A model generated the notes under the pieces. The model was not told the DNA's origin. It worked only from the letters and a program-made list of their open reading frames with translations, and did no database searches. Positions 3,099-60,677 of a stretch of DNA of 64,000 nt are shown piece by piece. The position numbers and the translations under genes are program-made. Numbering within the stretch: position 1 is the stretch's first letter; every line of letters starts with the position of its first letter. Source of the DNA: Sphyrna mokarran (Eukaryota); the NCBI GenBank assembly GCA_024679065.1, contig JAGIQG010000009.1, forward strand, positions 91,388,001 through 91,452,000, read 5' to 3'.

Positions 3099-3150
3099 CG
3101 GGAGAGACCCAGGAAAAACACAGGGAGATGGAGAAAAGGATCAGCAACAT
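3099..3150 (-). CDS. Gene A exon 1, signal peptide MLLILFSISLCFSWVSP
   Basis: ATG at 3150; 52 nt ending at a phase-1 donor G|GTAAGT. Joins in frame to exon 1-261. Identical to the leaders at 25322 and 59492. Confidence 0.9.
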
Positions 3151-3215
3151 TCTGGGAATCCACTGTCCCAATTCCAATCACTGACTGGGAATTAAACACT
3201 CTGAGGGTGAAATAA

Positions 3216-3412
3216 CTTTATAAACTGCGGGGAAAACATAAAAAAAACAACCCAAAACTTTATCCAAAATCCATTTTCCCGTCTAAATCGAGCATTTCCT
3301 TCTCGCAGAGCCAAAGGGTGACTGACTGATTCGTCTCAGAAAATGAACCAATGAATGAGATAAACAGTCAGCCTGTCACTAGTTACCAGCAAGATCAAAC
3401 TCAGACAGGTTC
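3216..3412 (-). promoter_or_regulatory. Gene A proximal promoter: S box, X1/X2, Y box, TATA
   Basis: Minus strand: GAACCT (3412-3407), CTGGTAACTAG-TGACAGG (3389-3372), 19-nt spacer, ATTGG (3352-3348), TATAAAG (3222-3216). Order and spacing match the vertebrate MHC SXY module. Confidence 0.8.
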
Positions 3413-3624
3413 AGATTCAGTCTGGAAAAAAATCTAAGAGGCATTTTTCCCATTCCAACCCCTAATTTTATGGTGGATGGAGTTGGGGGATGCACATGTT
3501 GGCTATTTTGCCTGACCCTGCGATTGTTTACGATCCGTGCACATCTCCGAACCAGAAAAACATAGCACCAGTGAGACGGCGCTGAAAACCGGCTTACCAC
3601 TAATTTGCATCACTGACCATACTT

Positions 3625-5608: not shown

Positions 5609-5900
5609 AATCTTTATCCAGTGCTTTTCGTAAAGTGAAACCTCCTCAAGGACAGCTTTATGAAACAAAGATTGAGCCAGAGACACACACAGCTCAGTGC
5701 ATAAAAACTGCCTCAAACTTTCATTTCTAAAATTGAGGTGTTGTTTGACTGGGAAACGCAAGTTCAGTGGGCACAGGAATGGGACGTTACGGAGATCCCA
5801 GTGTGGCACTTCACTCAATTCATTGCACTTTCTTTACACAAAGAACACTGGTGTAAAACACATCTTCCTATTACACCCAATGAAGTTAACACCATCACAT
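5609..5900 (-). promoter_or_regulatory. Displaced distal promoter of gene A with ISRE-like site
   Basis: aaagtgaaacc at about 5632-5642 (minus strand GGTTTCACTTT); flanks match 25655-25757 and 59818-59920. Confidence 0.7.
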
Positions 5901-6725
5901 CCCCTTACTCTCTCCCTGTCAGTCTCAGTCCCTCCCCTCACTCTCCCCCTGTCAGTGTCTCTCCCTCCCCTCACTCTCTTCCTGTCAGTGTCTCTCCCTC
6001 CCCTCACTCTCTTCCTGTCAGTGTCTCTCCCTCCCCTCACTCTCCTCCTGTCAGGATCACTCCCTCCCCTCACTCTCCTCCTGTCAGGATCACTCCCTCC
6101 CCTCTCTCTCCCCATGTCAGTGACACTCCCTCCCCTCTCTCTCCTCCTGTCAGGGTAACTCCCTCCCCTCACTCTCCTGTCAGTGTCTCTCCCTCCCCTC
6201 ACTCTCCTCCTGTCAGTGTCTCTCCCTCCCCTCACTCTCCTCCTGTCAGGGTCACTCCCTCCCCTCACTCTCCTGTCAGTGTCTCTCCCTCCCCTCACTA
6301 TGTCCTGTCAGGGTCACTCCCTCCCCACTCTCCTCTGTCAGGGGTACTCCCTCACTCTCCTGTCAGGCCCTCACCCGCATGTCTCTCCCTCCCCTCACTC
6401 TCCTGTCACTGTCTCTCCCTCCCCTCACTCTCCTGTCACTGTCTCTCCCTCCCCTCACTCTCCTGTCAGTGTCTCTCCCTCCCCTCACTATGCTCCTGTC
6501 AGGGTCACTCCCTCCCCTCACTCTCCTCCTGTCAGTCTGACTCCCTCACTCTCCTGTCAGTGTCTCTCCCTCCCCTCACTATGCTCCTGTCAGGGTCACT
6601 CCCTCCCCTCACTCTCCTCCTGTCAGTCTGACTCCCTCACTCTCCTGTCAGTGTCTCTCCCTCCCCTCACTCTCCTGTCAGTGTTTCTCTCTCCCCTCAC
6701 TTTCCTCTGTCAGTGTCACTCACTC
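5900..6725 (-). repeat. Second array of the same ~33-bp minisatellite, inverted relative to 4350-5350
   Basis: Unit ctccctcccctcactctcctcctgtcagggtca is the reverse complement of the first array's unit. Confidence 0.93.
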
Positions 6726-6977
6726 GCCGCCTGGTCAGTGGTTTCACTGTGATTTCTGGGTGATGGTCTGTATATTAAAGGAAGTGTCTCAGTGTAATTT
6801 GTTGTGGTATAACTCCAGCCTGTGCGATGCTAGTTTAACAGTTCTCGGGGGGAATGGATCAATGTGAATGTGTTCACTGTGTAGAGAGGGTCCAGGATCC
6901 CAGTGTCTCCGCTCCTTACAACGGAGCAGCTGACTGAGGCCTCTTCAATCTAACTCTTCGTCCATTTCTTGAATTTC

Positions 6978-7244
6978 ACTTGTCTGAGTTTGATCTTTCT
7001 GATAACTGGTGACAAAATGTAGCCCAGCCATTCAATTGGATGTTTTTCTGAAGCTAACCAATTATTTATCTTCAGCCCAGTTTAGGAAATGATCAAGTTA
7101 ATCAGGAAAATGGAATCTCCATTGATTTGTTATTTGTTTTTTTTCCCCCAATGTATAAAGAGTATTATTTTCCTCCTCAAGAGTGTTCAATTCTCAATCA
7201 CGGTGAGCTCTGCTGGCCACATATTCAAAGGAATGTAGGTAAGT
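6978..7244 (+). promoter_or_regulatory. Inverted paralog of the class I promoter with an ATG-TAG micro-exon and splice donor
   Basis: X1/X2 CTGATAACTGG-TGACAAA (6999-7016), 18-nt spacer, ATTGG (7035-7039), CCAAT (7058-7062), TATAAAG (7154-7160), ATG TAG (7233-7238), GTAAGT. Collinear with the reverse complement of 3148-3410. Confidence 0.75.
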
Positions 7245-8064
7245 CAACAAACTTATAATTTTCTGCATTTTTTCAGAGGTAAATTTTGGAAGTATTTAAC
7301 AAATCACCTAAAGAGACAGGCAACATAGAATGGAATTGGTAGAAATTAACAGATGTCCTTAGGGATCTATATCCTGCTGTCAGGAGAACTGAATACCAAC
7401 CCCATCAGACTCTTCCACACTGTGCTGATTTCAATGGTGTCAAATATCAGGCTGGCTGTACAATAGCGACTGAGCATCGCTGAGGAATGAATGTTTAGTG
7501 AGCGGGATCATGTGGTTGGGACGGGCAGTTGGTAATTACATTGAAATATATGTAAAAACATTAAAACCAGCTTCTTGCCTTTTGTGGGCTGAACCTTGTG
7601 GATGTCACCAGCCAGGAACATTAAAAATCAGGCAATATGATCTCGCTGGTGAGAACCGCGTTTTCTAATTCTTGCTGTATTTTCTACCTGTGTCTCCATT
7701 CTCGCTGAAAACTAACACAGCTGAAAATCACCCCTTTGATCTCTGCTATTCTTCACCAGTTACCTCAGTTCACAATCTTCTGTCTGAAACAAATCCTTAG
7801 GCTGCTATTTGTTTTCAATAAATTCTCACCGGCGGGATTTTCTGATGAGGTGGGGAACAGTTGTACACACTGCTGGTGGGAACCTTACCCGGCAGGGGGC
7901 AAAACTACTGCGTCTGCAGACGGCCGTCCCAGGACTGCTAATCAAACTGAAATGTGTATTTCCAAATTGTAATCATGCAGGACTGATCACATGGACCCAG
8001 GATGCCAGTCTCAATTCCCCGCTACAGGTCCCCCCACCGACTCCTGCTGATGCCTTCTGGGCCG

Positions 8065-8820: not shown

Positions 8821-10335
8821 GATTCAAATAGAACAATGGGCTGGGAGAATCCTGGCCCTTGTCTCTCTGGAGTGGAGCAGACAGGAGGGGAGGTAGTTGA
8901 AGACCAGCATTTTTCAGCAGCTGCCCCTTTGTATAAAAACCATTACTGATACATTGACTGGTATAAAGCAGGTCCATCTCAATCCTTCCAGTCACGTGGA
9001 AGATGTTGCAAAATTCCATAACAAATACAAAGACGAGTTATATTGAACTGGGATGGCAGCAACACAAATAACCCCAAAAGAATCACTCCTGCCAGTTCCA
9101 AGTACAGAAACAGTGCAAGTCCATGAGACAGCAGCTGGATCTCGAATGGGTGCAGCCTCTGTTTACCAGATTCAGGGTTCTGGGAGATGCCTCATTGGTG
9201 GATGCCAGCTTTGAGTTCCCCTATAGGCTCTTGTTGATGTCTCCCAGCACACTGATCAGTGACCAGTGTGATCACTGATTAATGTCTCTGGCATTAGAGG
9301 GGTCAGCGTATGGGAAGATGCAGAGTGATACCTCTTGCGAAGTGAATTTTTTTTAATCTCCCCTCAATGCCCCCTCCACAACTCTTTGTGACAGAGACCC
9401 TCAGGCACAGAGAGGGGGATTTTTGATATTTAATTTGGAGGAATTGTTTGTGATCTCTTATTTAATAAAAATTCTATTTCTAACTTAGAAATTGTGTTCT
9501 GTTTGAGGTTGTTGTTGTACTTCTATTTGAGCTCAGAGTCATTCTAAATAAATCAAATCATTTTATTCACATAAACCATTTTAAGATGATGACAGTTTAG
9601 AAAGTAGAAAAATAGCTCAGAAATGCAAATGTTACGAAATGTTTCAGACCAATTTGCTGAGGTTGACATTGTTCAGTAATAACTCTCACAAACTTGTGCA
9701 ATGTCTCCTTGTTGCTGTAATAAAATCTCCCTTGTTTTGCTTTCCAGCCACACTGTCCTTTTGTGCATTTCCTGGGAGAAGGAGAGGGATTTTTCTCCCT
9801 CTCAATATCCAAACCTATCAGTTCCCCCCTCAGCTGCTCTCCAGCCTCCCTGACAACTGCAGTCGGTCTTTCCTCAGCTTCTTCCTGAGACCTGGCTCCA
9901 GGGATATCCATGTTGGGATCCTCCATTTCATCCACTTCTGGAACAATCTGCTATGTGGGATGAAGGATCAGTGCTTCCTGTGGGGAAAGTTGGGCGATGT
10001 GTAACCGAGCCCCACAATCCCCAACACTGTGACAGGAGAGTCGAGCAAAGTGACCCCTGACCTGTGCAGACGCTGGCAACAGGAATTCAACAACCTGATT
10101 GTCTCCTTCAGTACTCGACATGTTAAAGTGCTTTGTTTCTTCCGTGATATACTTTTAATGATTTTTAAAATCAGATCAAACCTGTTTGAATCTTTTAAAT
10201 CAAATCAGAGAACTTGTCAAACGTCAGATATATTGAAGATATAAAAGGTTATATTGAAAATCTTTCAGAAAGTGTGGCATATCGACCAAATGTGAGTGTA
10301 TTTCATTCCCAACAATCTGTCCCTCAGTCACTCAC

Positions 10336-10367
10336 TGGAGCTGTTGTGTACGTCCCACTTGGTGAAT
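10336..10367 (-). CDS. Gene B exon 6, cytoplasmic (DSPSGTYTTAP)
   Basis: ctgcAG acceptor and CCA|GTGAGT donor; carries the class I cytoplasmic Tyr motif; identical in gene C. If unspliced it reads on to VSD-stop at 10324. Confidence 0.8.
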
Positions 10368-10772
10368 CTGCAGAAGTGAAATAAATGTCAGTTAGAATGG
10401 GGAATAATCCATTCTCAGAGAGTGAGAACACAACAAGTGTGAGGGAATGGAGATTGTGTGAGAAATACTCATCCTCACACTCCCCTCCATCCTTACACTT
10501 TATGGAGATCCTGTAGATCTCTTCCATTCCATCCATATTCAGTAGGTGAGGATGTGATTGTGTGCGGTGGCTTTAATGATCAATACTATACGTGTCTGGG
10601 CTGATCACACGAGAAAAGATCAGACAAGGAACAAGATGTGTTTATACGTGCGTATCTGTGTGTAGGAATTAAATCAGTTCATTCAACACAGTGTCCTGTA
10701 TTCCCAGTACTGGAGATTTCCCACACTCACTCTGTCCCCTCAGTTCTACATTCCCCTCTCTCTCATTCTTAC

Positions 10773-10889
10773 CTCTCCATTGTCTTTTCCAGATGATTAT
10801 TCCGATTATCCCAAATATAACAGCCAGTGTAGGGATCACTGCTCCGATTATAATTCCAAGATTTTGTTTCCCATTGTTTTCCGGGATTT
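10773..10889 (-). CDS. Gene B exon 5, connecting peptide and transmembrane segment
   Basis: EIPENNGKQNLGIIIGAVIPTLAVIFGIIGIIIWKRQWR; AG/GT boundaries, 117 nt, phase 1. Confidence 0.9.
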
Positions 10890-24059: not shown

Positions 24060-25175
24060 TTCCAGGTGGGACAGCTGCCAGGATGTGACAGATGGACATT
24101 CACCCTTGCAGCATGACTGAAGAAGTTCCATTTTCTTGCGGCATTGGGTGACAGTCCTCAGCGTCAGGTCGTGGGTGCCATGGTTGCCCCATCCCAGGAT
24201 GTATTCAAGTTCCTGCTTCTGGATAGCCTACCCTCTCGGCGGTTCAAGATGGCCTGCCTCTACTCCATGGCATCCAGCAGACATCATAGCTCTGGCTCGG
24301 TGAAGTGTGAGGCTGCTGTCTGTGCTGCCATCCTCCTTGTGTGACTGGCTGTGAGTGCACCTTGAATCCAACTCCTCTGGGTTAGCAGCACATTGCTGCG
24401 GCCATTCTGAGCGAGTCACACACCACAGTATGCAGCAAACTACCTCGCCTTCAGGAGAACACCACAACACACAACCCTGCAACAGCAACCTCTGCAAGAT
24501 ATACCAAATCATTGATACAGATGCCATCATCTCGTGTAAGAGCACCATCCACCAGATACGTGGTACATATTTTTACGACTCAGCCAATATTGTCTACCTG
24601 ATGCATTGCAGGAAGGGATGTCTCACGCAAGGTACCTTCATGAGACCATGCAGACATTATATCAATGAATAAATCCACAATCACGCAGCAGAAGTATTCT
24701 CTTCCTGTTGGGGAACACTTCAGCAGTAAAGGGCATTCAGACTCTGATCTTCGGGTAAGCATTCTCCAAGGCGGCCTTCAAGACACACAATAACGCAGAA
24801 TCGCCAAGCGAAAATTGATAGCCAGATTCTGCACACATGAGGGTGGCCTCAACTGGGATCTTGGCTTCATGTCACACTATCTATAACCCCCGCGATTTGC
24901 CCAGGCTTGCAAAATCTCATCCACTGTCCTGGCTTGAGACAATTCACACCTCTTTAACCTGTGCTTAACCCTCTCTCCCACTGGCATTGTCTACACCTGT
25001 AAAGACTCGATTACCTGTTAAACTCGCATTCCATCTTGTAATTGACTTTGTGTCTATATATGCCCTATTTGTGAAACAAATCCTGCACTCACCTAATGAA
25101 GAAGCGATACTCTGAAAGCTCGTGCTATCAAATAAACCTGTTGGACTTTAACCTGGCATTGAGAGACTTCTCATG
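24060..25175 (+). mobile_element. Penelope-like element fragment
   Basis: ORF 24355-24672 has PCNSNLCK...ANIVYLMHCRKGC; tail homologous to 8400-8820. Confidence 0.85.
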
Positions 25176-25321
25176 CTATCTAACCTGAGACACACCCGGT
25201 CTATCAGTAACTTGGGACAGTGACCTGAACAAACATCACCCATTTCAAACTCTCACCAAAAGATTCAAATTCACCCCAGAGAGAGAGAAAGTGAGAATGG
25301 GAGAGTGAATTCTGTACTTAC

Positions 25322-25373
25322 CGGGAGAGACCCAGGAAAAACACAGGGAGATGGAGAAAAGGATCAGCAACAT
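25322..25373 (-). CDS. Gene B exon 1, signal peptide
   Basis: Identical 52-nt leader with intact G|GTAAGT. It is the only leader between the gene B body and gene C, implying an ~11.7-kb TE-filled intron 1. Confidence 0.87.
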
Positions 25374-25438
25374 TCTGGGAATCCACTGTCCCAATTCCAA
25401 TCAGTGACTGGGAATTAAACACTCTGAGGGTGAAACAA

Positions 25439-25690
25439 CTTGATAAACTTGGGGGAAAAACACGAAAAAACAAAAACTTTATCCAGACTCCATTTTCCCG
25501 TCAGTGACGAAGTTTGCTCATTCCCTTATTGCAAAATCAGAGAATGACTGATTGGTTGGTCTCAAAAAATTAACCAATGAAAGAGATAAACAGTCGGTCT
25601 GTCACTAGTTACCAGGAAGATAAACTCAGACATGCTCAGACTGAAAAAAATCTAATCTTTACCCAGCACTTTTCACAAAGTGAAACCTCC
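25439..25690 (-). promoter_or_regulatory. Gene B promoter (ISRE, X1/X2, Y, CCAAT; variant S box and TATA)
   Basis: ISRE 25677-25687; X about 25598-25615; Y 25574-25578; CCAAT 25551-25555. TATA reads TATCAAG and the S position reads GAGCAT. Confidence 0.78.
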
Positions 25691-45300: not shown

Positions 45301-46034
45301 CCCACTTCTTGGTAGATGTTGCTGGTCTGACTTCTCCCAGAATGCACCAGTGAAGTCCCTCAGCTGCCTCTACTGGATGCTCTAACTCCAGTTTATCACC
45401 TGAGGTGATCTTCTCCTTCCCACTTCACATTGAGACATTTGACAGGTTTTTTTTAGCCATTCCCTGTAGCTATGATAGGAGGGCCTTAGACTTTCCCCAT
45501 TATGAGTCTCCAGTAGCTGCCCCAAGCTGTGTTCTGTCCCTCACCAGTATTCCTGAATCTTGCAATGTACCAGTCTGAAACCTTCATTCATGGAGACCCC
45601 TTTGCTCTGGAACAGCTGTAAGATTCAGGTTGATTTTGACTAAGTTCATTAATGGTCCTCCAGGAGACAGTATTTATCTCAGTGTGTGTTCCCGGGAACA
45701 GTCTGAACAGCGCACAGTCCTGTATAAAGGATCTGTCAGGTGAACACTTTGTGATTGTGTAGGAATTCATCAGATCAATTTTTGCTTTCCTTCATTTCAC
45801 ACAACTTACAGAGTGAAGTGGAAAACTGCTCAGCACCAGAAAGATGTTTCCAAAATCCTGATTGTCTTCTCCATTACCAGACTTGTCATAGAGTGTTTTA
45901 TACTGAGTCTAAAAGGTCTTGATCAAAATCCACAAACATTATAAGATATTTAAAATTCTGAGCAATCAGAAAGTGAGAAAAGTGCACAAAATGGGAGTAA
46001 TTCATTCCCAACAATCTGTCCCTCAGTCACTCAC

Positions 46035-46066
46035 TGGAGCTGTTGTGTACGTCCCACTTGGTGAAT
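46035..46066 (-). CDS. Gene C exon 6, cytoplasmic (DSPSGTYTTAP)
   Basis: Identical to 10336-10367 including splice sites. Confidence 0.8.
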
Positions 46067-46472
46067 CTGCAGAAGTGAAATAAATGTCAGTTAGAATGGG
46101 GAATAATCCATTCTCAGAGAGTGAGAACACAACAAGTGTGAGGGAATGGAGATTGTGTGAGAAATACTCATTCTCACACTCCCCTCCATCCTTACACTTT
46201 ATGGAGATCCTGTAGATCTCTTCCATTCCATCCATATTCAGTAGGTGAGGATGTGAGTGTGTGCGGTGGCTTTAATGATCAATATTATACCTGGTCTGGG
46301 CTGATCACACAAAGGAAGATCAGGCAGGGAACAAGAGGTGTTTATACGTGTGTACCTGTGGATGGGAATTAAATCAGTTCATTCAACACAGTGTCCTGTA
46401 TTCCCAGTACTGGAGATTCCCCACATTCACTCTGTCCCCTCAGTTCTACATTCCCCTCTCTCTGATTCTTAC

Positions 46473-46574
46473 CTCTCCGCTGTCTTTTCCAAATGATTAT
46501 TCCAAATATAACAGCCAGTGCTGCGATCATTATAATTCCAAGATGGAAACGCCCTTCACTGTTTCCCGGGATTT
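46473..46574 (-). CDS. Gene C exon 5, transmembrane segment
   Basis: EIPGNSEGRFHLGIIMIAALAVIFGIIIWKRQRR; 102 nt, AG/GT, in frame. Confidence 0.9.
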
Positions 46575-46935
46575 CTGAAACACATTTGAATAATATGAGG
46601 ATTGTCTCTGTTCCCGGATCCATTCCCAGTTCTGTGTTCATTGGGGACAATTTGAACTGAAACCACCCCAGTCCAAATGGGATTGGTTGAAGCTTTGCTT
46701 TTACACTGGCCCCGTGGTGGATAAGGGAGTGTCTACGGATCTGCTCTGGATGGACTTCCAGAAGGTCATTGATAAAGTTCCACACAAGAGATTCTTGACA
46801 ATAATAAGAGTGTTTGGAATTGAAGGGAATCTTTGTCAGGGGTGAAAATTGGTTGGCAGGAGAAAGACAGGGAATGGAGAGAATGGGAATGTGCTCCCAT
46901 ACAAACACATGCACATATCCAGTACAGTTCCTTAC

Positions 46936-47214
46936 CCCACTGATGGAGCTTGGGCTCTGCCAGGCTGCTGTGTTCAATTTGACAGGAGTATTGATCCTCA
47001 TCCCCAGCATTTATTTCAATCTCTTTCTGGATCTGATGGCTCCCATCGTGGTTCGGTCGAATCCCCGAGGATAGTGTCTCAGACATTACCTCTCCGTTCC
47101 TTAACCAGTTCACCTCGATGTCTACAGGATAAAAGCCAGTAACCAGGCAGGAGAGAGTGAGGGGCTTGTACTGACTATTGGGCTCACTTCTGGAGATGAA
47201 GACTTCAGGCTGAA
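46936..47214 (-). CDS. Gene C exon 4, alpha3
   Basis: C1-set Ig motifs; 87/93 aa identical to gene B. Confidence 0.96.
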
Positions 47215-47331
47215 CTGTAATGGGAAAGGGTGAAAACACAAACAATAAACCCACACTGAATGCAATGGGGGAACGGTTTGATAAATCAGTGAAGTTAGAG
47301 CAGAACATGGACTTAAAACTGAAATCAATAC

Positions 47332-47607
47332 CTTTCCGTCCCAAATATTCCTTTCCAGCTTCCAAATATTTGTGTAAATGTTGAACAAATTGTCCCAGAA
47401 GATATTTTTCCCAGTAATTATTCCAGGATTGATCAGAATCCCATTTCTCTTTAGTCTTTACTGCGAAGTGATTGGATGCAACCCATCTCATTCTGTCTGG
47501 CTCTAAACTAATATAGTCCTTTCCATCAAATCCAAACTGCATCGATCTCGTAATGGAGCCGTCTTCAGTGACCTCGACAGACCGAGTCCATTGAAGAACG
47601 TGAATTC
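47332..47607 (-). CDS. Gene C exon 3, alpha2 (no cysteines)
   Basis: GIHVLQWTRSVEV...FGFDGKDYI...TKEKWDSDQSWNNYWEKYLLGQFVQHLHKYLEAGKEYLGRK; 276 nt. Confidence 0.95.
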
Positions 47608-47754
47608 CTGTCAAAAACCAAACTGGGATCAATAATCAATAGACAATCTTTTCAGTGGTGAAAGGGGATTTAGTCTGAGATAGAAATGGATGGAATCTTC
47701 CTGTGCCATCAGTAGCAGGAAGCTGAGTGGTGAGGTTATTAAATTAGATGGAGT

Positions 47755-47845
47755 CAGTGCTGGGAGATGGACAGAGCTCAGTGTCCCAGGGGTCAGTGCT
47801 GGGGGACTGAGCTCAGTGTCCCAGGGGTCAGTGAGCTCAGTGTAA
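47755..47845 (+). repeat. Short tandem repeat in intron 2 of gene C
   Basis: About 3 copies of gagctcagtgtcccaggggtcagtg. Confidence 0.8.
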
Positions 47846-47886
47846 GGTTATACATCAATACGCTGATTCTCTCTGCCTGTTCTTAC

Positions 47887-48147
47887 CGGATGTCTGGTTT
47901 GTGATCTTCTGCACTGTATTCAGATTCTCCTTTGCCATGTTGAAGTGTTTTTTTGCCTCGCCTGTGATATAATCCCAGAATTCAGAATTGAAATTTTCAG
48001 CCATGAACCTCTGCCGGGGAATGCAGCGATGGGTATTACTGTTACAATATCCTACTTGGACACCATTAACCATTGCAGTGTTTATCAACTCAGGAAAATC
48101 TTCTACTCCAGAGACAGCAGTGTATATCACTGTGTATGTGTTAGTGT
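47887..48147 (-). CDS. Gene C exon 2, alpha1
   Basis: DTNTYTVIYTAVSGVEDFPELINTAMVNGVQVGYCNSNTHRCIPRQRF...EFWDY...TNQTS(G); 261 nt, AG/GT. Confidence 0.94.
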
Positions 48148-48964
48148 CTGTAAAAGAAACAATTAAAGCGATTGGTCAATAAACACCATCTGATCATCAG
48201 AACAATGTTGCTGGCCTTCATCATCCCCCCTCCTCAATCACTATCCCCTCCCTAATAATCACTCCCTGTCCCGATCACCACCCCCCTCACCGATCTCCAT
48301 CCACTCGCGTGATCACTACCTCGAGAGAGCCACTCCTGAACACCACTCCGAACGGGGCAACGGTCTAGGACTTGGGCCAGTGATACAGTCTGGGAGGCTG
48401 TGTAATCGGCCATCAGTGTTCGCGTCCTGCTACAGAGGACCAGGGACCAGTGTCAGAAGAGGATGAATAACCTTCTTTGAGCAGGAAGGGTCAGTGTCCA
48501 TCCCATCCTGATACCGGTCCCGTCTGTCGCCCCTGCAATGTCGAGCCACCCGCCTGACACTCTGCAGCCTCCCAGCACCCGGCCTCAAGGATATTCCTCC
48601 AACCCCTCTGGCACCCCCACTCACAACCACAGACTGCCGAGGCACAGCCCCAATAAACCCACCCTATCACCCCACCCCCTACACCCTGTGTCCTTCCAGC
48701 CATCAGATTTTCAATCCCTCCTTTATTCCCAAAGGACAAAGTGATCCATAACCCCACCAGGATCATGCCAAGACTGTGGGTGGGGTTCCCGAGCTGCATC
48801 TCCTCACTACCTTTGAGGAGCGCTATGGGGCTAGCAGGGAAGAGGAGGGAATGGTCACTGACAGCCAGGTCAGAGTTCACCATGGAAATCAGCATTTCCA
48901 AAACCCTTGTTCAAATGTCTCATTCCAGGTAAGTGGCAGACTGCCCAGACACTTGTCCCTTATT

Positions 48965-50745
48965 ATTCCACTCGAATACAAGGAAAGTAGAAAGAAACTT
49001 AAGCAAGGAGTTAGAAGGGTAAAAAGGGGCCACAAAAAAAAAACACTGGCCAGTTGGATTAAGGAAAATGCCAAGGATTTTCATACATAAGTAAAAAGCA
49101 AGAGGGTAGCAATAGAAAGGGTTGTCCCACTCAAGGATAAGAGAGGGAATCTATGCGTGGATCAAGGGGAAATGGGTGATATATTAAATGAGTATTTTGC
49201 ATCAGTATCCACCAAAGAATGACTTGTGGATGATGAGTCTGGGACAGGACGGGTAGATAGTTTGAGTGATGTTGAGATCGGAAAGGAGAAGATATTGGGG
49301 TTCTTGAGAAACATTAAGATAGACAAGTCCCCAGGGCCTGATGGGATATACCCCAGAATATTGAGAGAGGCAAGGGAGGAAATTGCTGGGGCCTTGAGAG
49401 AAATCTTTGCCTCCTCACTGGCTACAGGGGAGGTCCCAGAGGACTGGAGCATTACCAATGTTGTTTCTTCATTTAAGAAAGTTAGCAAGAATAATCCAGG
49501 TAATTACAGGCTGGATCATCACTGGCAGGGAAATTTTTGGAGAGGATTCTTCAAGACAGGATTTACACCCACTTGAAAATAAGTGGACGTGTTAGTGAGA
49601 GACAATATGGTTTTGTGAAGGGGAAGTCATGTCTCACAAACTTGATCGAGTTTTTCGAGGAAGTGATGAAGATGAATAATGAAGGTCGGGCAGTGGATGT
49701 TGTCTACATGGCCTTCAGTAAGGTCTTTGACAGGGTCCCTCATGGCAGACTGGTGCAGAAGGTGACATCACATGGGATCAGAAGTGAGCTGGCAAGATGG
49801 ATACAAAACTGGCTTGGTCAAAAAAAACAGAGGGTAACAGTGGAAGGATGCATTTCTGAATGGAGGGCTGTGACAAGTGGTGTTCCTCAGGGATCAGTGC
49901 TGTTTGTAATATATATAAATGATTTGGAGGAAAAAGTAACTGGGTTGATTAATAAGTTTGCGGACGACACAAAGGTTGGTGGTTTTGCAGAAAGCAATGA
50001 GGAACATCAGAGGATACAGCAGGATATAGATCAGTTGGAGACTTGTACAGAGAGGAGATGGACTTTAATCTGGATAAATGTGAGGTAATACATTTTGGAA
50101 GGTTTGATACAGATAGTAAATATACGGTAAATGGCAGAATCCTTAGGAGTATTGATAGGCAAAGGGATCTGATTGTACAGGTACACAGGTCAGTGGAAAT
50201 GGCAATGCAGGTGGAGGAGGTAATCAAGAAAGCATATGGCATGCTTGCCTTCATCAGCCAGGGCATCAAGGTTAAAAACTGGAAAATCATGTTGACACTT
50301 TATAGAACCTTAGTTAGGCTGCATTCAGAATATAGTGTTAAATTCTGATTGCCACAATACCAGAAGGATTTGGAGAGGGTCCAGTAAAGATTTACCAGGA
50401 TGTTGTCTGGTCTGGAGAACATTAGCTATGAGGGCAGGTTGGAGAAACTTGGTTTGTTCTCACTGGAACAACAGAGATTGAGGGGTGACCTGACAGAAGT
50501 CTACAAGATTATGAGAGGCATGGACTGAATGGATAGTCAGAAGCTTTTGCCCAGGGTGTAAGAGTCAATTACTAGGGGCACGGGTTTAAGATGCAAGGGG
50601 CAATGTTTAAAGGAGATGTACGAGGCAGATTTTTTACACACAGAGTAGCGGGTGCCTGGAACCCGTTGCCGGGGGAGATAGTGGAAGCGGATACTGAATT
50701 GACTTTTAAGAGTCGTCTTGACAAGTACATGAAAAGTTTGGAAAA
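48965..50745 (+). mobile_element. CR1 LINE fragment (RT)
   Basis: ORFs 49226-49576 (KSPGPDGIYPR), 49537-50088 (FADD) and 50043-50348. Confidence 0.92.
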
Positions 50746-51399
50746 GTCTACGAATCACCAGGCAGGAATATTCCGATTTAAATTTCACTCCCAGCTGTGG
50801 CTGCCTGGAAACACTCTCACCTCTGACTCAGTATGTTCTGGATTGAAGCTCCCGTTCCAGAGACTGGGCTGCACACACAGTGTATTACTGACAGAATGCT
50901 GCACTGTCAGAGGATCAGTCCTGAGGGAGAACTTTCCTCACAGATTAATGGAATAGATCCCGGGACAGAGCAGGATGATCAGAAACTGGATCAATACTGA
51001 TCCCTGAGACAACATCATCCATGTAGATTGTCTAATCAGAGTTTCCTGCACCATAACAGTGAGGACACTAGAAAAGGTATTTCATTGGCTGGAAAGAGCT
51101 TTGGTGCATCCTGGTGTTGTGAAGTCTTTCTGTCTCTGCTTTCTCTCTCACACCTTTTGTCAAAATACATTGGTAACTTTGGAATCTAACATCACTGCTC
51201 CCAAATCAAGGTACGGATTTTAATTTGTTAAGAATAGAAGAACCAGGAGCAGGAGTCGGCCATCTGGACCCTCAACCCTGCTCCTCCATTCAATAAGATC
51301 ATGGCTGAACTTCTTGTGGACTCAGCTCTACTTACCCTCCCGCTCACCATAACCCTTAATTCCTTCACTATTCAAAAATTTATCTATCTTTGTCTTAAG

Positions 51400-51724
51400 C
51401 CAGGAACAGTAGCACACTGGTTAGCACTGCTACTTTGCAGCTCCAGGGACCTGGGTTCAATTCCCAGCTTGGGTCGCTGTCTGTGTGGGGTTTGCACATT
51501 CTTCTTGTGTTTGTGCAATTCCTTCCAGATGCTCTGGTTTCCTCCCACAGCTCAAAGATGTGTGGGTTAGGTTGACTGGCTATGCTAAAATGGTTCTTAG
51601 TGGCCTGAAATGCATAGTTTAGAGGTATTAATGGGCAAATGTGTAGTGATGTGGTGGTAGACCTAGGTGGGATTGTGGTCAGTGCAGACCCAATGGCCTC
51701 TTTCTGTTCTGTTGGGTTTGTATG
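51400..51724 (+). mobile_element. tRNA-derived SINE nested in the CR1 3' region
   Basis: A box tagcacactgg and B box ggttcaattcc; ttaa flanks. Confidence 0.82.
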
Positions 51725-52938
51725 ATTAAAATCATTCAATGAGGTAGCCTCAACTGCTTCACTGGGCAGGGAATTCCACAGATTCACAATCCTTTGTGTG
51801 AAGAAGTTCCTCTTCAACTGAGTCCTAAATCTGCTTCTCCTTATTTTGAGGCTATCTCCCAAGTTCTAGTTTCACCCGCCAGTGGAAATAACTTCCCTGC
51901 TTCTATCTTATTTATTCCCTTCATAATCTTATATGTTTCTATAAGATCTCCCTTATTCTTGTGAATTCCAATGAGTATAGCCCCAGTCTACTCAGTCTCT
52001 CCTCATAAGCCGACCCTCTCAATTCCAGAATCAATCTACTGAATCTCCTCTGCACTCCTTCCAGTGCCTGTATATCCTCTTCAAAGTAAGAACATCAAAA
52101 CTGTACACTGTACTCCAGGTGTGGCACCTTATACAACTGCAACATGATCTCCCTGTTTTTAAACTCCATCTCTCTGAAAATGAAGGCAAAATTCCATTTG
52201 TCTTCTTAATTACCTGCTGCACCTGCAAACTAACTCCTTGAGATTCCTACACAAGGAAATCCAGGTCCCTCTGTGCAACAGCATCGGCAATTTTTTTCCA
52301 CCTAAAAAACAGTCCATTTTGCCATTATTCCTGCCAAAATGGCTGACCTCGCATTTACCAACATTGTACTCCATCTGCCAGACCCTCACCCACTCACCTA
52401 GATTATCTATATCCCTTTGCAGACTTTTAGCATCCTCTGCACTCTTTGCTCTTCCATGCATCTTACTGTCATCTGTGAATTTTAACACACGAGACTTGGT
52501 TCCCAACTCCAAATCATCTATGTAATTTGTAAACAATTGTGGTCCCAACACTGATCCCTGAGGCACACCACTAGTCAATGATCATTAGAAAAACATCCAT
52601 TTTCCTCCACTCTTCACTTTCTCTTAGTTGATCAATCCTCTATCCACGTTAGTACATTACCTGTAACATTGGGCATCTTTATCATATGCAGTCTTTGGTG
52701 CGGTACCTTGTCAAATGCCTTCTGGAAATCCAGATACATCACATCCACAGGTTCCCCATTGTCCACTGCACATGCAATGTTCTCAAAGAATACCACCAAA
52801 TTCGTCAAACATGACCTGCCCTTTATGAACCCATGCTGTGTCTTACAAATTGGATTATTTATATCCGGATATCTCACTATTTCTTCTTGATGATAGATTC
52901 AAACATTTTCCTTACTACAGAAGTTAAGCTTATAGAAC

Positions 52939-54170
52939 CGGTTGGGTGCTTTTTGGCGCTGCCGTTTTGGCGTCGATGTTATGGCACTGCTGTTTTGGCG
53001 CTAATTGTTTTGGCGCCCTTCATCTTGGCGCTAATTGCTTTGGCGCCAAAATTAAAATTAAAGCATGGAATAAATGGATTAAATTAAACTATGATAAAAA
53101 TAAGAAACCTTTATTCTGGCATAAAACATTTATGTAAAAGAAAAAGAAAATAATAATTAAAACTCAGTAATTTAATATATTTCGTAATTGTAGGCTATAC
53201 TACGCAAATATTCTAATGGTTCTCTCTCATCAAACTGGCGCACAATATTTAAAATGCGCTCATCGGCTTTCACATACTTAAGAAGTTTTTGTTTTGGAGC
53301 ATGGCCAGCAACCAACTGTTCACAATATACATCTCGGTTCTTTTGAATTTTTCTCAGTCCATCAATAAATTTCCATATAATGGGGTGGTGAACTCCTAAT
53401 TCCACATATATTTTTCTGTGTGCTGCTTCTGTGTGATTGTTAGTTCAGTCCTCTCCAGCGATTGTACGATTATACTGGTTCCACATCTCTGAAGGAAAAA
53501 GAGGGGGCTGCCTCTTCATAGAATAGAATTCATGACCACTGTCAGCTATTAAAAAGTTCTCATGTTCACCATTGTTCTTCATATAATGTTTGTAATCATC
53601 GGGGATCACTAATTCACGAACATGAACAGGATTTGGAGGAACGAGGTTCATTTGATTTCTTCTTCTCCTTACAATTTGCTTAATTGCGTCTGAACATGGA
53701 AGTGCTCCTTGAGCGGCTTGAGAAATATTTTCGGTACAAGAACTTATAATTGCCAATGGTTGATCTTGACTCTCTCCAGCCCGGCATTTTACACTTGTTT
53801 TAATTTCAGCTACTTCTACGCTTGCTGCTGAAGCACCATGAGAATGCTCGTTTGTTTTCTTTATCACTACATTGTTTTTAGTGTGTATACGGGCTTTGCA
53901 CACGTTCTTGTTTTCACACATCTAAAACTTCATCGAAGGTACCTTCTTGCTATGCTTGTCGAACACATATAGATATCCATTGTGAGAAAATTTTGATTTG
54001 TCTTTCTTACTTAAAATACTTTCAGCCATTTCTGTAGATAGGTTCGACTCAACTAATTATAAAAATGTTCACATTATAAAGAAAAAGTTCCTATACGAAA
54101 TAGGTATTAACGAATTGGCGCCAAAACGAATTGGCGCCAAAACGAATTGGCGCCAAATGGTACCATTCCC
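52939..54170 (-). mobile_element. Mutator/MULE (Phantom-like) DNA transposon with FLYWCH domain, internally deleted
   Basis: 8-bp TSD TATAGAAC (52931-52938, 54171-54178); imperfect TIRs and subterminal ttggcgcc repeats. One frame 54029-53172 with two stops: NGYLY..F*MC..CKARIHT..HSH and P.LFP..MWN..*TNNHTEAAH..HPIIWKFI. Confidence 0.88.
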
Positions 54171-55806
54171 TATAGAACATAGAACAATACAGCACAAACA
54201 GGCCCTTCAGCCCACGAGTTGCGCCGATCACATCTATATCTACCAATCCACAGACCTATCTATAATCCTCTATCCCATTCTTTTCCATATACTCATCCAG
54301 AAGTCTTTTAAAAGACCCCAGCGAGTTTGCCTCAACCACCTCTGACGGCAGCCGATTCCATTCACTCACCGCCCTCCGAGTGAAAAACTTATCCCTAACA
54401 TCCCCACTGTATTTGCTTCCCTGCACCTTAAATCTGTGTCCTCTCGTAGTGACCATTTCAGCTCGGGGAAATAGTCTCTGAGAGTCCACCCTATCTATTC
54501 CTCTCAACATTTTATAAACCTCTATCAGGTCGCCTCTCAACCTATGTCTCTCCAGTGAGAAAAGTCCCAGCTCCCTCAATCTATCTTCATAAGGCCTGCC
54601 TCCCAATCCAGGCAGCATCCTTGTAAATCTCCTCTGCACTCTCTCAATAGCCTCTACATCCTTCCTATAGTGAGACGACCAGAACTGCGCACAATACTCC
54701 AAGTGGGGTCTGACAAGGGTCTTACAGAGCTGCATCATTACCTCCTGACTCCTAAACTCTATTCCTCAATTAATGAAGGCCAGTACACCGTATGCCTTCT
54801 TGACCACTTCCTCCACCTGCGAGGCCGATTTAAGAGTCCTATGGACCCGGACCCCGAGATCCTTCTGCTCTACAACACAGCTAAGACTCCTACCCTTATA
54901 TTGTACTCCTTCATCCCATTATTCCTGCCAAAATGGACCACTACACATTTATCCGCGTTGAAGTCCATCTGCCACTTCTCCGTCCAGTCTTGCATCCTGT
55001 CTACGTCCCGCTGCAACTTTTGACAACCCTCCAAACCATCCACAACACCATCGACCTTTGTATCGTCAGCGAACTTACTAACCCATCCCTCCACTTCCTC
55101 ATCCAGGTCATTTATGAAAATGACAAACAGCAGGGGTTCCAGAACAGATCCCTGGGGCACTCCACTGGTTACTGACCTCCATGCAGAACAAGACCCATCC
55201 ACAACCACACTCTGCCTTCTGCTGGCAAGCCAGTTCTGGATCCACAAGGCCAAAGCCCCATGGATCCCATGCCCTCTCACCTTCTCCAGAAGCCTTGCAT
55301 GGGGAACCTTATTAAACGCCTTGCCAAAGTCCATGTACACTACGTCCACTGCTCTTCCTTCGTCAATGTGTTCCGTCACATTTTCGAAGAACTCAACTAG
55401 GCTCGTGAGGCATGACCTGCCCTTGACAAAACCATGCTGACTATTTTGAATCAGTCTAAACTTCTCCAAATGTTCATAAATCTTGTCCCTCAGAAGCCTC
55501 TCCATCAGCTTACCAACCACTGAAGTCAGACTCACCGGTTGGTAATATCCTGGACTATCCTTGTTCCTTTTCTTAAAGATAGGAACCACATCCGCAATCC
55601 TCCAATCCTCCGGAACCTCTCCCGTTTCCGTGGACGACACAAATATCATCACCAGGGGCTCTGCAATCACTTCCCTCACTTCCCACAATAACCTGGGGTA
55701 CATCCCATCCGGTCGCGGCAACTTGTCTATCTTGATAGAATTTAACAGGTCTAACACATCCTCTTTCCTAACATCCACATACTCAATCTCTTCCGTTTGC
55801 CTCAAA
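54171..55806 (-). mobile_element. Younger CR1 LINE (5'-truncated)
   Basis: ORFs 54870-55805 and 54256-54738; (gttctat)n tail; many CpGs retained. Confidence 0.95.
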
Positions 55807-58610
55807 TCTTATCGGCCAGTAGTTATCTGCCTTTTATCTACCTCTTTTTTTAAACAGTGGCATTGCATTTTCTGTTTTCCAATCTGTGGGAAACACCCCA
55901 GAGTTCAGCGAATTTTGGTAAATTACTACTAGTGCATTTGTCATTCCCCCTGACATCTCTTTAAGTATCCTGGGATACATTTCATCAGGGCCACGAGACT
56001 TGTCTATCTTCAGCCTCATTAACTTGCCCAACACTCCCTCTTTTATGATAATTTTTAGGTTCTCACCTGCCATAACCTTCTTGTCATCAATTTTTGACGT
56101 TATTTGTGTCTTCCACTGTGAAGACCGACACAAAATACCTGCTCAATGCTCAGCTATTTTCTCATTTCCAGTTATTACATATCTCTTCTCATCCTCTAAA
56201 GGATTCATGTTTACTTTCACACTCTTTTTCAGTTTTATATTTATAGAAACTTTTGCTCTCTGTTTTTAATATTCTGAGCTAGTTTACCCTCATTCTCCAT
56301 ATTACCTTTCTTTAGCTTTTCTCATGGCTTTCTGTTGACCTTTAAAGATTTCTCCATCCTCCAGTTTCTCACTAATCTTTGCCATTTTGTCTGCATTTTC
56401 TTTCAATTTGATTCCCTCTTTTATTTCCTCAGATATCCATGGCTGATTATCTCTTTTTCTACAGTCCTTCCTTATCACTGGTGTATACTTTTGATCAGCA
56501 CTGGGAAAGATCATTTTGAAAGTTCTCCACTGTTCCTCAATTGTCCCAGTATAAAGTTTTTGCTCCCAGTTTACCTTAACCATTCCTGACTCATCCCTTT
56601 ATAATCCCCTTTGTTTAAACACAAGCCAATAGTATTTGATTTTAAGTTCTCATGCTCCTTTATCGGTTCCATTACATACTGTTCAAGGAAGCTATCGTGG
56701 ATACGTTCTATGAACTCCTCCTCAAGGCTGCCTTGACCGACCTGGTTTGACCAATTGATACTGAGATTAAAATCCCCCATGATAATTGCTGTACAATTTT
56801 TACATCCATCAGTTATTTCTTTGTTTATTTCTCACCCCATCACAATGTTATTATTTGTTGGTTTATAGACTAAGCCAATCAGTGACTTTTTCTCCTTATT
56901 ATTTCTAATTTCCACCCAAATGGATTCAACCGTTTTTCCTTAGAACCTATATCATTTTTCATTATCGCTCTGATATCATCCTTAAATATCACAGTTACAC
57001 CATTTCCATTATCTTCCTGTCTGTTCCTCCGAATACTTTGATACCCCTCGATATTCAACTTCCAGTCATGAACATCCTTCAACTCTGTCTCAGTAATGGC
57101 CACCAAATCATACTCATTCACAATGATTTATGCTATCAATTCATTTACCTTGTTTCGAATGCTGCTGGCATTCAGATAAAATGCCCTTATGCTTATTTTT
57201 GTACCTTCTTTTTGAATTCTAACACTTCCATTAATAACATCTCCTCAGTTCTTCTTCCTTTAACTTTATTCCTGATTTTTGATGTAGTTGGAACTTTCTC
57301 CCCACATTTTGTCTTTGCTCCCTCCTTCTCGGACTCCTTACACACGTTCCCATTACTCTGGCGTTATTAGTTTAAACCCTCCCCAACTGCTCTAGCAAAC
57401 CCTTGGACATCAATCCCAGTCCTGCCCAGATGTAACCTGTGCAATTTATACAGGTCCCACTTCCCCCAGAACCGTCCCAATGCCCCAGGAATCTGAAACC
57501 CCTTCCCTGATACCATCTTTTCAGCCATGTATTTATCTGATATTTCCTCTCATTTCTAATCTGACTAACGCGCGGTACCACTAATAATCCTGAAATCACT
57601 ACCTTTCAGATCCGATTTCTTAACTTTCTTCCTAACTCCCTATATTCTGCTTTTAGGACCTCATACTTTTTTGTAAACTAAAAGTCGTTTGTACCAACAT
57701 GCACTACAACCATGGGGTGTTCACCCTCCCCCTTCACAATGTCCTGCAGCCGCTCCGAGACATCCTTGACCCTAACACCAGGGAGGCAACATACTATCTT
57801 GAAGTCTCGTTTGCAGCCAGAGAAATGCTTGTCTATTGCCCTTACAATTGAATCCCCTATAACTATTGCACTGGCACACTTTTTACCCATCCCCTCTCCA
57901 ACAGAGCCAACCTTGGTGCAATGAGTTTAGCTGCTGCTGCTTTCCCTAGAGAGATCATTCCCCTCAACAGTATCCAAAGTGATATATCTATTTTACAGGG
58001 GAATGGTCACTGGAGAATCCTGCACTACCTGCCTATCTCTCTTGCTCTGTCTGATGGTCACCCATTCTCTTGCTGCCTGAGGAGTCTGAGCCTGCGGTGT
58101 GACCAACTCTCTATACCTGCTATCCACAATACTCTCTGACTCACGGATGCTCCACAGTGTCTCCATCCGCCGCTCCAGTTCTGAAACTCGAGCTTCCAGG
58201 AGCTGTAGTGGAGACACTTCCCGTACACATGCTGACCCAGGAGACTGGAACTGTCCCCAGCCTGTCACATGGAGCAAGAGGAACAAGCCACTGCTTGGAG
58301 CTCTCCTGTCATGTCTTACCCCTTTCAATTAAACTTTTGAAAGATCTTTTGTTTCAGATATATACAATTTTCTTTCTTTCCTGCTCCTTGTTACTACCGA
58401 GTATAACCTTTTCAAACCACAAACCACAGAAATTACACAGAAACACTATAATAGTGTACACCAACTACAATGCCAAGAGCAAAAAGAAAAAATATTTCCC
58501 AATCAGCACTCCCGCTTGTAGCCTCTGCTGCCTGTTTCACCTAACTCCCTGTGTCCATCCAACTCCCAAAGCACTCCTCACAGTCAGATAGCACTCTGTA
58601 CAGGAAAAAT

Positions 58611-58862
58611 ATGATGTGAAGATGCCGGCGCTCGACTGGGGTAAACACAGTAAGAAGTCTCACAAAACCAGGTTAAAGTCTAACAGATTTATTTGATAGT
58701 AAACGTCTCTAGCTTTTGGAAAGTTGTTCCTTCGTCAGGTGATTGCAGAATTCTGAGTGGAGAACTTTCCATTCACCTGACAAAAGAATAGTGTTCAGAA
58801 AGCTTGTGGCGTTTACTGTCAAATAAACCTGTGGGACTTTAACCTTGTGTTGTGAGACTTCT
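58611..58862. mobile_element. Palindromic Penelope-pLTR-derived element with 12-bp TSD
   Basis: tacaggaaaaat at 58599-58610 and 58863-58874; about 58650-58745 is an imperfect inverted repeat of about 58770-58862. Confidence 0.8.
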
Positions 58863-59491
58863 TACAGGAAAAATGTAACAGTGAGCCAGCCAGAAGCTGG
58901 ACCTGGAATATTCTGATCTTGTTTTCTGACACTCATATTTTATCTTTTCCTCTTTGGTACTACAAAGTACTTGGTTACTAAATCTCCTGTGTTATCTACA
59001 GCTCTGCCTGTCAATCTTTAAGGGTTCCATGTCTCACAGAGTCACTCATTTACTGTTAATATATTTCGATAAACTTTTACCATTGGTCTTTATATTACCT
59101 ACACATTTCCACAATGTCCTTTATCTCAATTTAATCTTTCTGTTCCTCCATCCTCCCCTCTGTTTCTGGACATTTCCACTTTAATTGCTCCAAGCTTCTC
59201 TGATCTGGGTGTTTTGAACATACAAACATGGGGCAGGAGTAGGCCATTCGGCCCCTCGAGTCTGCTCCGTTATTCTGTGGCTGATGTGATTGTGATCTGA
59301 ACTCTACTTTCCTCTCAATCTCTCTGTACACTTTCACTCCCTTGTCAGTCATGATGTTATCTAACATTTATATCTGACAGATACACAATAATGTCTGAGT
59401 GAACATCACCCATTTCAAACTCTCACCAAAAGATTCAAATTCACCCCAGAGAGAGAGAGAGTGAGAACGGGAGAGTGAATTCTGTACTTAC

Positions 59492-59543
59492 CGGGAGAGA
59501 CCCAGGAAAAACACAGGGAGATGGAGAAAAGGATCAGCAACAT
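59492..59543 (-). CDS. Gene C exon 1, signal peptide
   Basis: Identical 52-nt leader with intact donor; intron 1 is about 11.3 kb. Confidence 0.87.
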
Positions 59544-59608
59544 TCTGGGAATCTACTGTCCCAATTCCAATCAGTGACAGGGAATTAAACACTCTGAGGA
59601 TGAAACAA

Positions 59609-59850
59609 CTTTATAAACAGGGGGAAAACACGAAAAAACAAAAACTTTATCTAAACTCCCACTTTCCAGTCCAAATCGAGCATTTCATGCTTGTAGAACC
59701 AGAGGGTGACTGATTGGTTAATTTTCTGAGATGAACCAATGAAAGAGATAAACAGCCAGCCTGTCACTAGTCACCAGGAGGATCAAACTCAGACAGGTTC
59801 AGGCTGAAAAAAATCTAATCTTTACCCAGCACCTTTCACAAAGTGAAACC
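59609..59850 (-). promoter_or_regulatory. Gene C promoter: complete ISRE-S-X1-X2-Y-CCAAT-TATA
   Basis: ISRE 59840-59850; GAACCT 59795-59800; X 59760-59777; Y 59736-59740; CCAAT about 59713-59717; TATAAAG 59609-59615. Confidence 0.82.
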
Positions 59851-60164: not shown

Positions 60165-60545
60165 GGCAGAGGGAATGGTGCCTTTAATTCAAAGAGAATG
60201 GAATATAAAAGTAGGGAAGGCTTGCTAAACCTATAGAAGGCACCAGTTAGACCACATCTGGAAAACTGTCCCCTTTAGTCCCCTTATCTAAGAGAAAATA
60301 TACTAGCATTGGAAGCAGTGCAGAGAAGATTCACTAGATTGAGACCAGGTGTGGAGGGATTTTCTTCTGAGGAGAGGTTGAGTAGATTGGGCCTGTACTC
60401 ATTGGAGTTTAGAAGAATGAGAGCGACCCGATTCAAATGTATAAAATTCCCAGAGGGTTTGACAGTGTAGATGCTGAGAGGATGTTTCCCCAAGTGGGAA
60501 AGTCTAGGACCAGAGAGTAGAATCTCAGAGTAAAGTGTCACCCAT
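60165..60545 (+). mobile_element. CR1 RT fragment fused directly to intron-1 sequence of relic D
   Basis: Encodes LEAVQRRFTRL..EERLSRLGLYSLEFRRMR, then switches at tcacccattt. Confidence 0.8.
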
Positions 60546-60625
60546 TTCAAACTCTCACCAAAAGATTCAAATTCACCCCAGAGAGAGAGAGAGAGTGAGA
60601 ATGGGAGAGTGAATTCTGTACTTAG

Positions 60626-60677
60626 CGGGAGAGACCCAGGAAAAACACGGGGAGATGGAGAAAAGGATCAGCAACAT
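60626..60677 (-). pseudogene. Orphan dead leader exon (relic gene D)
   Basis: Leader copy with donor GT>CT (60625) and Leu10>Pro; no exons of its own downstream; promoter split by transposons. Confidence 0.85.

Follow-up and report, generated by a model that had tools for sequence, protein, structure and literature searches.

The 64-kb stretch of shark DNA analyzed here (the window) contains a minus-strand cluster of elasmobranch nonclassical class I (class Ib) genes and, on the opposite strand upstream of gene A, a single diverged copy of their promoter. On balance, we favor the reading that this inverted copy is what remains of the 5′ end of a class Ib paralog that came to lie in inverted orientation long ago, a near-inert by-product of gene birth and death. 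Judged by its sequence, it is today most likely at most a weak docking site for RFX, CREB, and NF-Y, with poor NLRC5 recruitment. A profile of the four promoter/exon-1 copies of the cluster matched positions 6978 to 7203 of the plus strand with an E value of 6.4e-22, and this was the sole further significant locus in the window; the next-ranked match (E = 0.001) was the reverse strand of gene C's own promoter. By BLAST, the inverted copy was 68% identical to gene A over 236 nt, and its identity to the class Ib promoters of the cluster was 60 to 70%. According to the initial annotation, a shark class I cluster contained an inverted and diverged class I promoter on the plus strand, about 3.8 kb upstream of gene A and divergent to it. 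This was borne out by the profile match, by the distance of 3.8 kb to the start codon of gene A (ATG 3150), and by the relatives of the gene B alpha-2 exon.

The cluster comprises the following features.

3099..3437, minus strand: promoter and exon 1 of gene A (ATG 3150; exon 1, 3150-3099), with the alpha-1 exon at 262-1
10324..25660, minus strand: gene B, from promoter and exon 1 (ATG 25373) to the last exon, with a stop near 10325
46023..59820, minus strand: gene C, with promoter and exon 1 (ATG 59543), alpha-1 at 48.15 kb, and the stop at 46023-46025
60538..60960, minus strand: copy D, an orphan exon 1 (ATG 60677) with a dead donor (GT changed to CT) and without a gene body of its own
2994-3183, 25218-25406, 59394-59576, and 60535-60710, minus strand: exon-1 cassettes of copies A, B, C, and D, respectively

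The remaining exons of gene B are found at 13.6 kb (alpha-1), 12.3 kb (alpha-2), 11.9 kb (alpha-3), and 10.9 kb (transmembrane [TM]), and its likely poly(A) signal is at 10159. The alpha-2 exon of gene B had 85 relatives, 84 of which carry elasmobranch class I-like names, and the best of these was 90% identical. When its alpha-1 domain was compared by eye with the nurse shark query Gcirratum_UCA_NODE_26056 of the PMC10751288 supplement, about 58 of the 84 residues matched. In the same paper, UDA is a single-copy lineage and UEA, its neighbor, a multicopy one, so that genes A to C are likely, by elimination, to be UEA; PMC12562908 served as a source of lineage names only.

The exon-1 cassette (the end of the untranslated region [UTR], the signal exon, and the first 100 nt of the intron) was 92 to 95% identical among A to D, versus a protein identity of 33 to 54% among the alpha-1 exons. 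Of the 17 residues of the leader, 16 or 17 were matched in 47 of the 85 relatives, which belong to several shark orders, and this likeness reflects either strong concerted evolution or selection acting on the peptide. A parallel to this uniformity is found in the conserved leader peptides of class I molecules. In a white shark gene model, the same leader was joined to a UDA-type alpha-1; either exon 1 is common to, or borrowed across, the lineages, or the model is an annotation artifact arising from a D-like orphan exon. Fusion of a relative's model to a UDA-type unit is expected if UEA and UDA are neighbors.

The promoters of the cluster have themselves diverged. CCAAT is present in genes B and C and mutated in gene A, TATAAA is present in genes A and C and mutated in gene B, and both are mutated in copy D. 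Just before the TATA-like word, promoters A to C also carry a pyrimidine tract followed by AG, which could be a splice acceptor for an upstream noncoding exon. Copy D, which lies 1.1 kb upstream of gene C, combines an old-type Y-to-TATA region with a freshly homogenized exon 1, and its X/S region has been replaced by repeats, such that no X box is found. Copy D is thus a second relic besides the inverted copy, and orphan promoter/exon-1 pieces do arise in this cluster.

At approximately −260 to −195 relative to the ATG, promoters A to C contain an S-X1-X2-Y module in mammalian geometry, preceded in genes B and C by an interferon-stimulated response element (ISRE) about 50 nt upstream of the S box. 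The primer sequences given in PMC4374748 provided two mouse modules, H2-K and H2-Eb, for comparison. Genes A and C share with these modules the S core, the 15-nt S-to-X1 spacing, X1/X2, and a nearly identical Y spacing. The corresponding parts of the inverted copy, and what follows them, are listed below.

6974..6981, plus strand: S-box position, TTTCACTT; 3 or 4 of 7 S positions kept, with an IRF core in either reading of the element
6981..6997, plus strand: S-X spacer, matching gene A at all 17 nt
6998..7016, plus strand: X1/X2 box (X1, 6998-7011; X2, 7010-7016), with 10 or 11 of 14 X1 positions and 5 or 6 of 7 X2 positions kept
7035..7039, plus strand: Y-box core ATTGG, 23 nt after X1; 7 to 9 of 10 positions of the whole Y box kept
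7058..7062, plus strand: putative CCAAT box
7154..7159, plus strand: TATAAA, a putative TATA box
7180..7203, plus strand: conserved block after the TATA box, 23 to 28 of 33 positions identical, at which supported promoter homology ends
7233..7244, plus strand: ATG TAG, then a consensus donor (AG/GTAAGT)
7239..7361, plus strand: decayed remnant, probably of the 3′ half of an alpha-1 exon, in the frame of the ATG, with its core match at 7269-7304
7368..7476, plus strand: 109-nt segment repeated at 2901-3004 in intron 1 of gene A (86% identical) and found twice only

The distances from X, Y, and CCAAT to the ATG agree with those of gene C to within 1 nt, and the X1-to-Y spacing is 23 nt, compared with 24 nt in genes A to C, 23 nt in H2-K, and 22 nt in H2-Eb (mouse spacings counted by eye). 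With respect to the H2-K module, the inverted copy is therefore alike in X, in Y, and in their 23-nt spacing but unlike in its lost S box, an element on which the initial annotation was silent; at most 4 of its 7 positions are kept, and the core ACCTG is changed. X1/X2 retains 7 of the 8 positions common to the mouse and shark modules; the exception is a G-to-A change at position 5 of X1, where genes A to C and both mouse modules have G. Thus, the X1/X2, Y, CCAAT, and TATA elements named by the initial annotation are present as cores, but X1 and Y are incomplete and an invariant X1 base has changed. Similarly, the reported 18-nt spacing of Y is found between X2 and ATTGG, but this gap measures 19 nt in genes A, B, and C. 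The claim that motifs were kept while spacers drifted was not borne out in that form, since the S-X spacer is the best-kept block of all (14 to 15 of 14 to 15 positions); the probability of a 17-nt identical run arising by chance anywhere in 230 nt is 0.02 to 0.14. The inverted copy has a GC content of 36% and a single CpG, compared with 42% and 3 to 5 CpGs in the genes. ATG TAG and the donor were found as described, but placing them at the homologous start position goes beyond the alignment, in which the last 33 nt before the ATG scored p = 0.15 to 0.28 and homology is statistically supported only to about 7203.

We also searched the other units of the cluster with the profile, as the initial annotation had suggested, and obtained no counterpart either in the 20 kb between the gene B promoter and the 3′ end of gene C or in the 4.4 kb visible upstream of gene C. 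The inverted copy therefore lies outside the repeating gene unit. We rejected the idea that the region upstream of gene A had simply been inverted or had undergone mirror duplication, because the inverted matches around it have different centers and the 109-nt segment is a direct repeat.

The copy is old. In the Y-to-UTR region, it is 62 to 65% identical to A to D (Kimura two-parameter [K2P] distance, 0.48 to 0.54), compared with 81 to 83% (K2P, 0.19 to 0.23) among A, B, and C, and it groups with copy D apart from A to C (bootstrap 95, five sequences). The distances and the grouping together indicate a promoter type older than the radiation of A, B, and C or than the homogenization of these genes. 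Its being recognizable at all requires no selection, because old transposon or repeat pairs in the window are 63 to 96% identical.

The degree of constraint on the inverted copy was assessed by comparing motifs with spacers, a check proposed in the initial annotation, with each of A, B, and C as the reference and for two gap settings and two motif sets (12 tests). Motifs were slightly ahead, at 70 to 80% identity (72 to 80% for the set of the initial annotation) versus 58 to 68% for spacers, and Fisher's test gave p < 0.05 in 4 of the 12 comparisons, but block permutation did so in only 1 (range, 0.029 to 0.229). The same tests on copy D, which is without an X region, yielded a motif excess in 0 of 12. 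Moreover, even a neutral copy should look better at its motifs, because constraint acts on the working genes with which it is compared. A model of such one-sided constraint predicted an identity of 0.67 to 0.82; 36 of 47 positions were identical (P = 0.11 to 0.87 across 12 parameter sets), and by another count 32 of 40 were kept (P = 0.06 to 0.70).

The cores taken alone gave a somewhat different picture. The inverted copy has retained ATTGG, CCAAT, and TATAAA without a change at any of the 16 bases (P = 0.002 to 0.04 if neutral), including the CCAAT that is gone from gene A and the TATAAA that is gone from gene B. With copy D as an outgroup, the inverted copy keeps 15 of 16 ancestral motif bases versus 70 of 96 to 98 spacer bases (Fisher p = 0.047 to 0.059). 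When positions were fixed from the mouse modules and genes A and C, 16 of 18 were kept (P = 0.06 to 0.35), and for the a priori X/S positions together with CCAAT and TATA the count was 27 of 29 (P = 0.003 to 0.085). Whole-motif identity thus appears to fit neutrality, with the cores slightly above it, and we regard core retention as a hint of constraint rather than a demonstration. Some of this retention may go back to the living paralog or may stem from short conversion tracts from gene A.

Beyond the promoter, likeness to the cluster drops abruptly. Between −33 and +160 relative to the ATG, the minus-strand copies are 92 to 95% identical to one another, and the inverted copy is 43 to 47% identical to them, down from 62 to 65% in the promoter; so abrupt a fall fits a junction to other sequence. 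We scanned the window in six frames with a family profile built from 68 of the 85 relatives (those of 300 to 440 amino acids), and the best match outside known exons was at 7.26 to 7.33 kb, on the strand of the copy and in the frame of its ATG, although with a window-wide E value of 6.9. Here, FFRGKFWKYLTN aligns with YFDAEYWDYLTD of the family. None of 300 shuffles and none of 192 real tiles reached the ungapped score of 24.3, and none of 3,000 shuffles reached the gapped score of 9.3 bits, with its two tiles ranking first and second among 1,180 overlapping real tiles (next, 8.2). Profile-profile comparison gave P = 0.005 and an HH probability of 7%. The W-x-Y-L motif is present in the alpha-1 query of this lineage and was not seen, by eye, in the UAA, UBA, UDA, UFA, and UGA queries of the accessible part of the PMC10751288 supplement. 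At the DNA level, likeness was weak (p = 0.027, 0.51, and 0.074 against A, B, and C, respectively), and a three-exon DNA profile did not match the stretch. Simulated alpha-1 halves carrying 0.3 substitutions per site had a median of 7.0 bits and a DNA score of 42, against the observed 9.3 and 39, so that the observed scores are in line with an alpha-1 half decayed to this extent. From these comparisons, the stretch after the ATG is probably the second half of an alpha-1 exon, a reading that was found after looking and that competes with the signal-exon reading over the same bases.

The reading frame is disabled: the ATG frame stops at its second codon, and the stretch has three stops in 56 codons. 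Its read-through frame had no close database relatives (one candidate, none at E ≤ 10; otherwise unrelated matches at E ≥ 0.17). Searches beyond it on the plus strand with tblastn, the family profile, and DNA profiles of ten gene segments yielded no alpha-2, alpha-3, TM, or other class I exons, and nine plus-strand frames had 0 Pfam matches. Two open frames of 50 and 66 codons across the promoter end were dismissed as chance, as they are not open at the homologous position of gene A.

We propose the following course of events. An early duplication would have placed a gene of the family on the opposite strand; the promoter homology and its age are seen directly, and the gene would once have been whole. 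A deletion then probably collapsed the gene body, joined the start region to the second half of alpha-1, and removed the later exons. The UTR end and the middle of alpha-1 share a 10-nt word in gene A and a 6-nt word in gene C, which could have provided a natural join for such a deletion. Thereafter, the working genes went on homogenizing their exon-1 cassette while the inverted copy dropped out and decayed; its S box, the invariant X1 base, CpGs, and reading frame are gone. MHC class I fragments and pseudogenes, such as the partial HLA class I pseudogenes, are typical of birth-and-death clusters. The inverted copy resembles these in that it is truncated and has decayed while other duplicates still work, and copy D is a further relic within the window; the inverted copy differs in that mainly the regulatory 5′ end survives and in its inverted orientation.

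The DNA between this copy and gene A is rich in repeats.

5609..5723, minus strand: upstream promoter block of gene A with the ISRE (5642), displaced 2.2 kb from the SXY module
4350-5349: inverted 30-copy array of a 33-nt minisatellite, 550 nt from the array at 5900-6740
5900..6740: 33-nt minisatellite, 26 copies
6740..6750, plus strand: half ISRE-like sequence at the minisatellite edge, probably incidental

The displacement is due to an insertion at 3437-5609 (2.2 kb, with a retroelement tail and the inverted minisatellite array) that splits the gene A promoter. The two inverted arrays could form a long hairpin, and a 3-copy array lies upstream of gene B at 26171-26319. Retroelement-like fragments at 7987-8819 and 3631-4062 are 81% identical and inverted to each other, without a Pfam match; we take them to have the look of a Penelope-type 3′ end. 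In gene A, the 109-nt segment takes the place of the stretch that intron 1 of gene C has between homologous flanks, which suggests that it was inserted with the inverted locus, 4.4 kb away, as the template. As a direct repeat, the segment has opposite senses relative to the two promoters.

A weak ISRE-like sequence had been noted at about 6740. We found GGTTTCACTGT there, but it has one GAAA-type half-site only, with TGT in place of the TTT that forms the second half in the three real ISREs. It resembled both the last decayed minisatellite unit (p = 0.08) and the three real ISRE regions (p = 0.02 to 0.09), and it is unsupported as the ISRE of the inverted copy. The region from 6729 to 6980 had no significant homology to other upstream DNA in the window. 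The 8-mer TTTCACTT, which occurs 7 times in 128 kb, is either a decayed S box or the family ISRE; in the latter case, a deletion of about 45 nt would have taken out the S box and brought the ISRE up against the S-X spacer. Leftward extension from it gave p = 0.046 to 0.19 to the ISRE block versus p = 0.50 to the S-box flank of gene A, which is suggestive only.

The main alternative to a decaying relic is that selection has kept it as a distal X-Y/CCAAT enhancer of gene A, acting through RFX, CREB, and NF-Y in the manner of the S′-Y′ module of HLA-DRA, which is itself inverted. According to the accessible parts of the respective papers, S′-Y′ lies about 2.3 kb upstream of HLA-DRA and binds RFX and CIITA (PMC2677874, PMC1904273), and XL elements are further distal modules in the human class II region (PMC7866136). 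Such modules are enhancers with RFX and CIITA binding, the HLA-DRA one being flanked by intergenic transcripts (PMC2677874, PMC1904273, PMC7866136, PMC1802633), and S-Y modules are active in both orientations in reporters, as well as distally (PMC1802633, PMC2677874). Help for gene A would be useful because it has lost CCAAT and its ISRE is displaced by 2.2 kb, and the IRF core at the S position, the H2-K-like spacing, the borderline outgroup test (p of about 0.05), and the retention of all 16 core bases, because of which a residual enhancer role is conceivable, point the same way. However, the S box, the determinant of NLRC5 transactivation according to PMC4374748, is decayed or deleted, and the motif excess is marginal. 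In addition, the invariant X1 base is changed, X and Y have fared no better than the TATA and UTR blocks, for which an enhancer would have no use, the other gene units have no such copy, and conversion tracts from gene A could have refreshed patches, as the 17-nt run and the 109-nt segment suggest. We consider a selected enhancer somewhat unlikely. In a variant of this idea, which on sequence grounds we hold to be unlikely, the promoter of the dead paralog was remodeled as the distal enhancer of gene A, with an IRF core in place of the S box fused to X-Y/CCAAT. The likeness to S′-Y′ consists in an extra X-Y-type module a few kilobases upstream of an MHC gene; the inverted copy differs in having CCAAT, TATA, a 5′ UTR, probable coding remains, a poor S box, and a class Ib setting. 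We did not class it as S′-Y′ because its S box is lost and because a core promoter and probable coding remains are present. The searched literature, which lacks most subscription papers, contained no study of shark class I promoter modules or enhancers.

Two further explanations concern the start region itself. In one, the copy would be a live promoter producing a capped, spliced noncoding RNA that runs away from gene A, divergent to it, and ends at an AATAAA, with the donor at 7238 closing exon 1 and shielding the transcript from early cleavage. Few parts are as well kept as TATA and the block that follows it, acceptors are found at 7276 (strong) and 9747, and AGGTAAGT, at the donor, is present just 3 times in the 128 kb that the two strands comprise, a rarity suggesting that it was either inherited from the donor of exon 1 or selected. 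A perfect donor where a first-exon donor would be useful is a point against our relic reading. However, the nearest strong acceptor would leave a 38-nt intron, three donor-like sites (including 7203 and 7279) crowd within 80 nt, the best Rfam match, and the only one, has an E value of 0.81, far below the cutoff for a structured RNA, and the nine plus-strand frames compared with Pfam gave no match; a live promoter therefore seems improbable. The spliced antisense long noncoding RNA toward gene B envisaged by the initial annotation is unlikely because five AATAAA sites (7817, 8774, 9464, 9547, and 9719 on the plus strand) come before the gene B poly(A) signal, and any plus-strand RNA would more likely be divergent to gene A than antisense to gene B. 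In the other explanation, the promoter and exon-1 cassette alone were duplicated in inverted orientation; the signal exon was then shortened by 46 nt or decayed where it stood, the resemblance to alpha-1 arose by chance, and the copy is inert. The tandem copy D proves that such cassettes move alone, no later exons are present, the signal-exon alignment reaches p = 0.010 to 0.014, and one 46-nt deletion plus one substitution would yield ATG TAG GTAAGT. Against this stand the abrupt drop in identity after the promoter, the stronger protein-level match to alpha-1, and an intron-1 alignment of p = 0.07 to 0.40, and we judge it highly improbable. That last value also makes the earlier view, a lost signal-peptide part followed directly by intron, the least supported of the three readings of 7239-7360. 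Under the relic reading that we prefer, ATG-TAG/GTAAGT is most likely a scar of decay rather than a designed micro-exon.

As a relic, the inverted copy is ordinary, but it records how this cluster evolves, in that exon-1 cassettes are shuffled and made uniform but promoter types of long standing persist. A remodeled enhancer, if that is what it proves to be, would make up for the lost CCAAT and displaced ISRE of gene A and would correspond, at a shark class I locus, to the S′-Y′ modules of mammalian class II genes, as an intermediate showing that distal MHC enhancers can come from pseudogene promoters. Any activity would likewise give distal MHC S-Y enhancers a concrete origin and offer a route to different expression from nearly identical class Ib promoters. 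The S-X-Y modules in mammalian geometry, together with the ISREs, in these shark class Ib promoters make RFX/NLRC5 control in cartilaginous fish testable.
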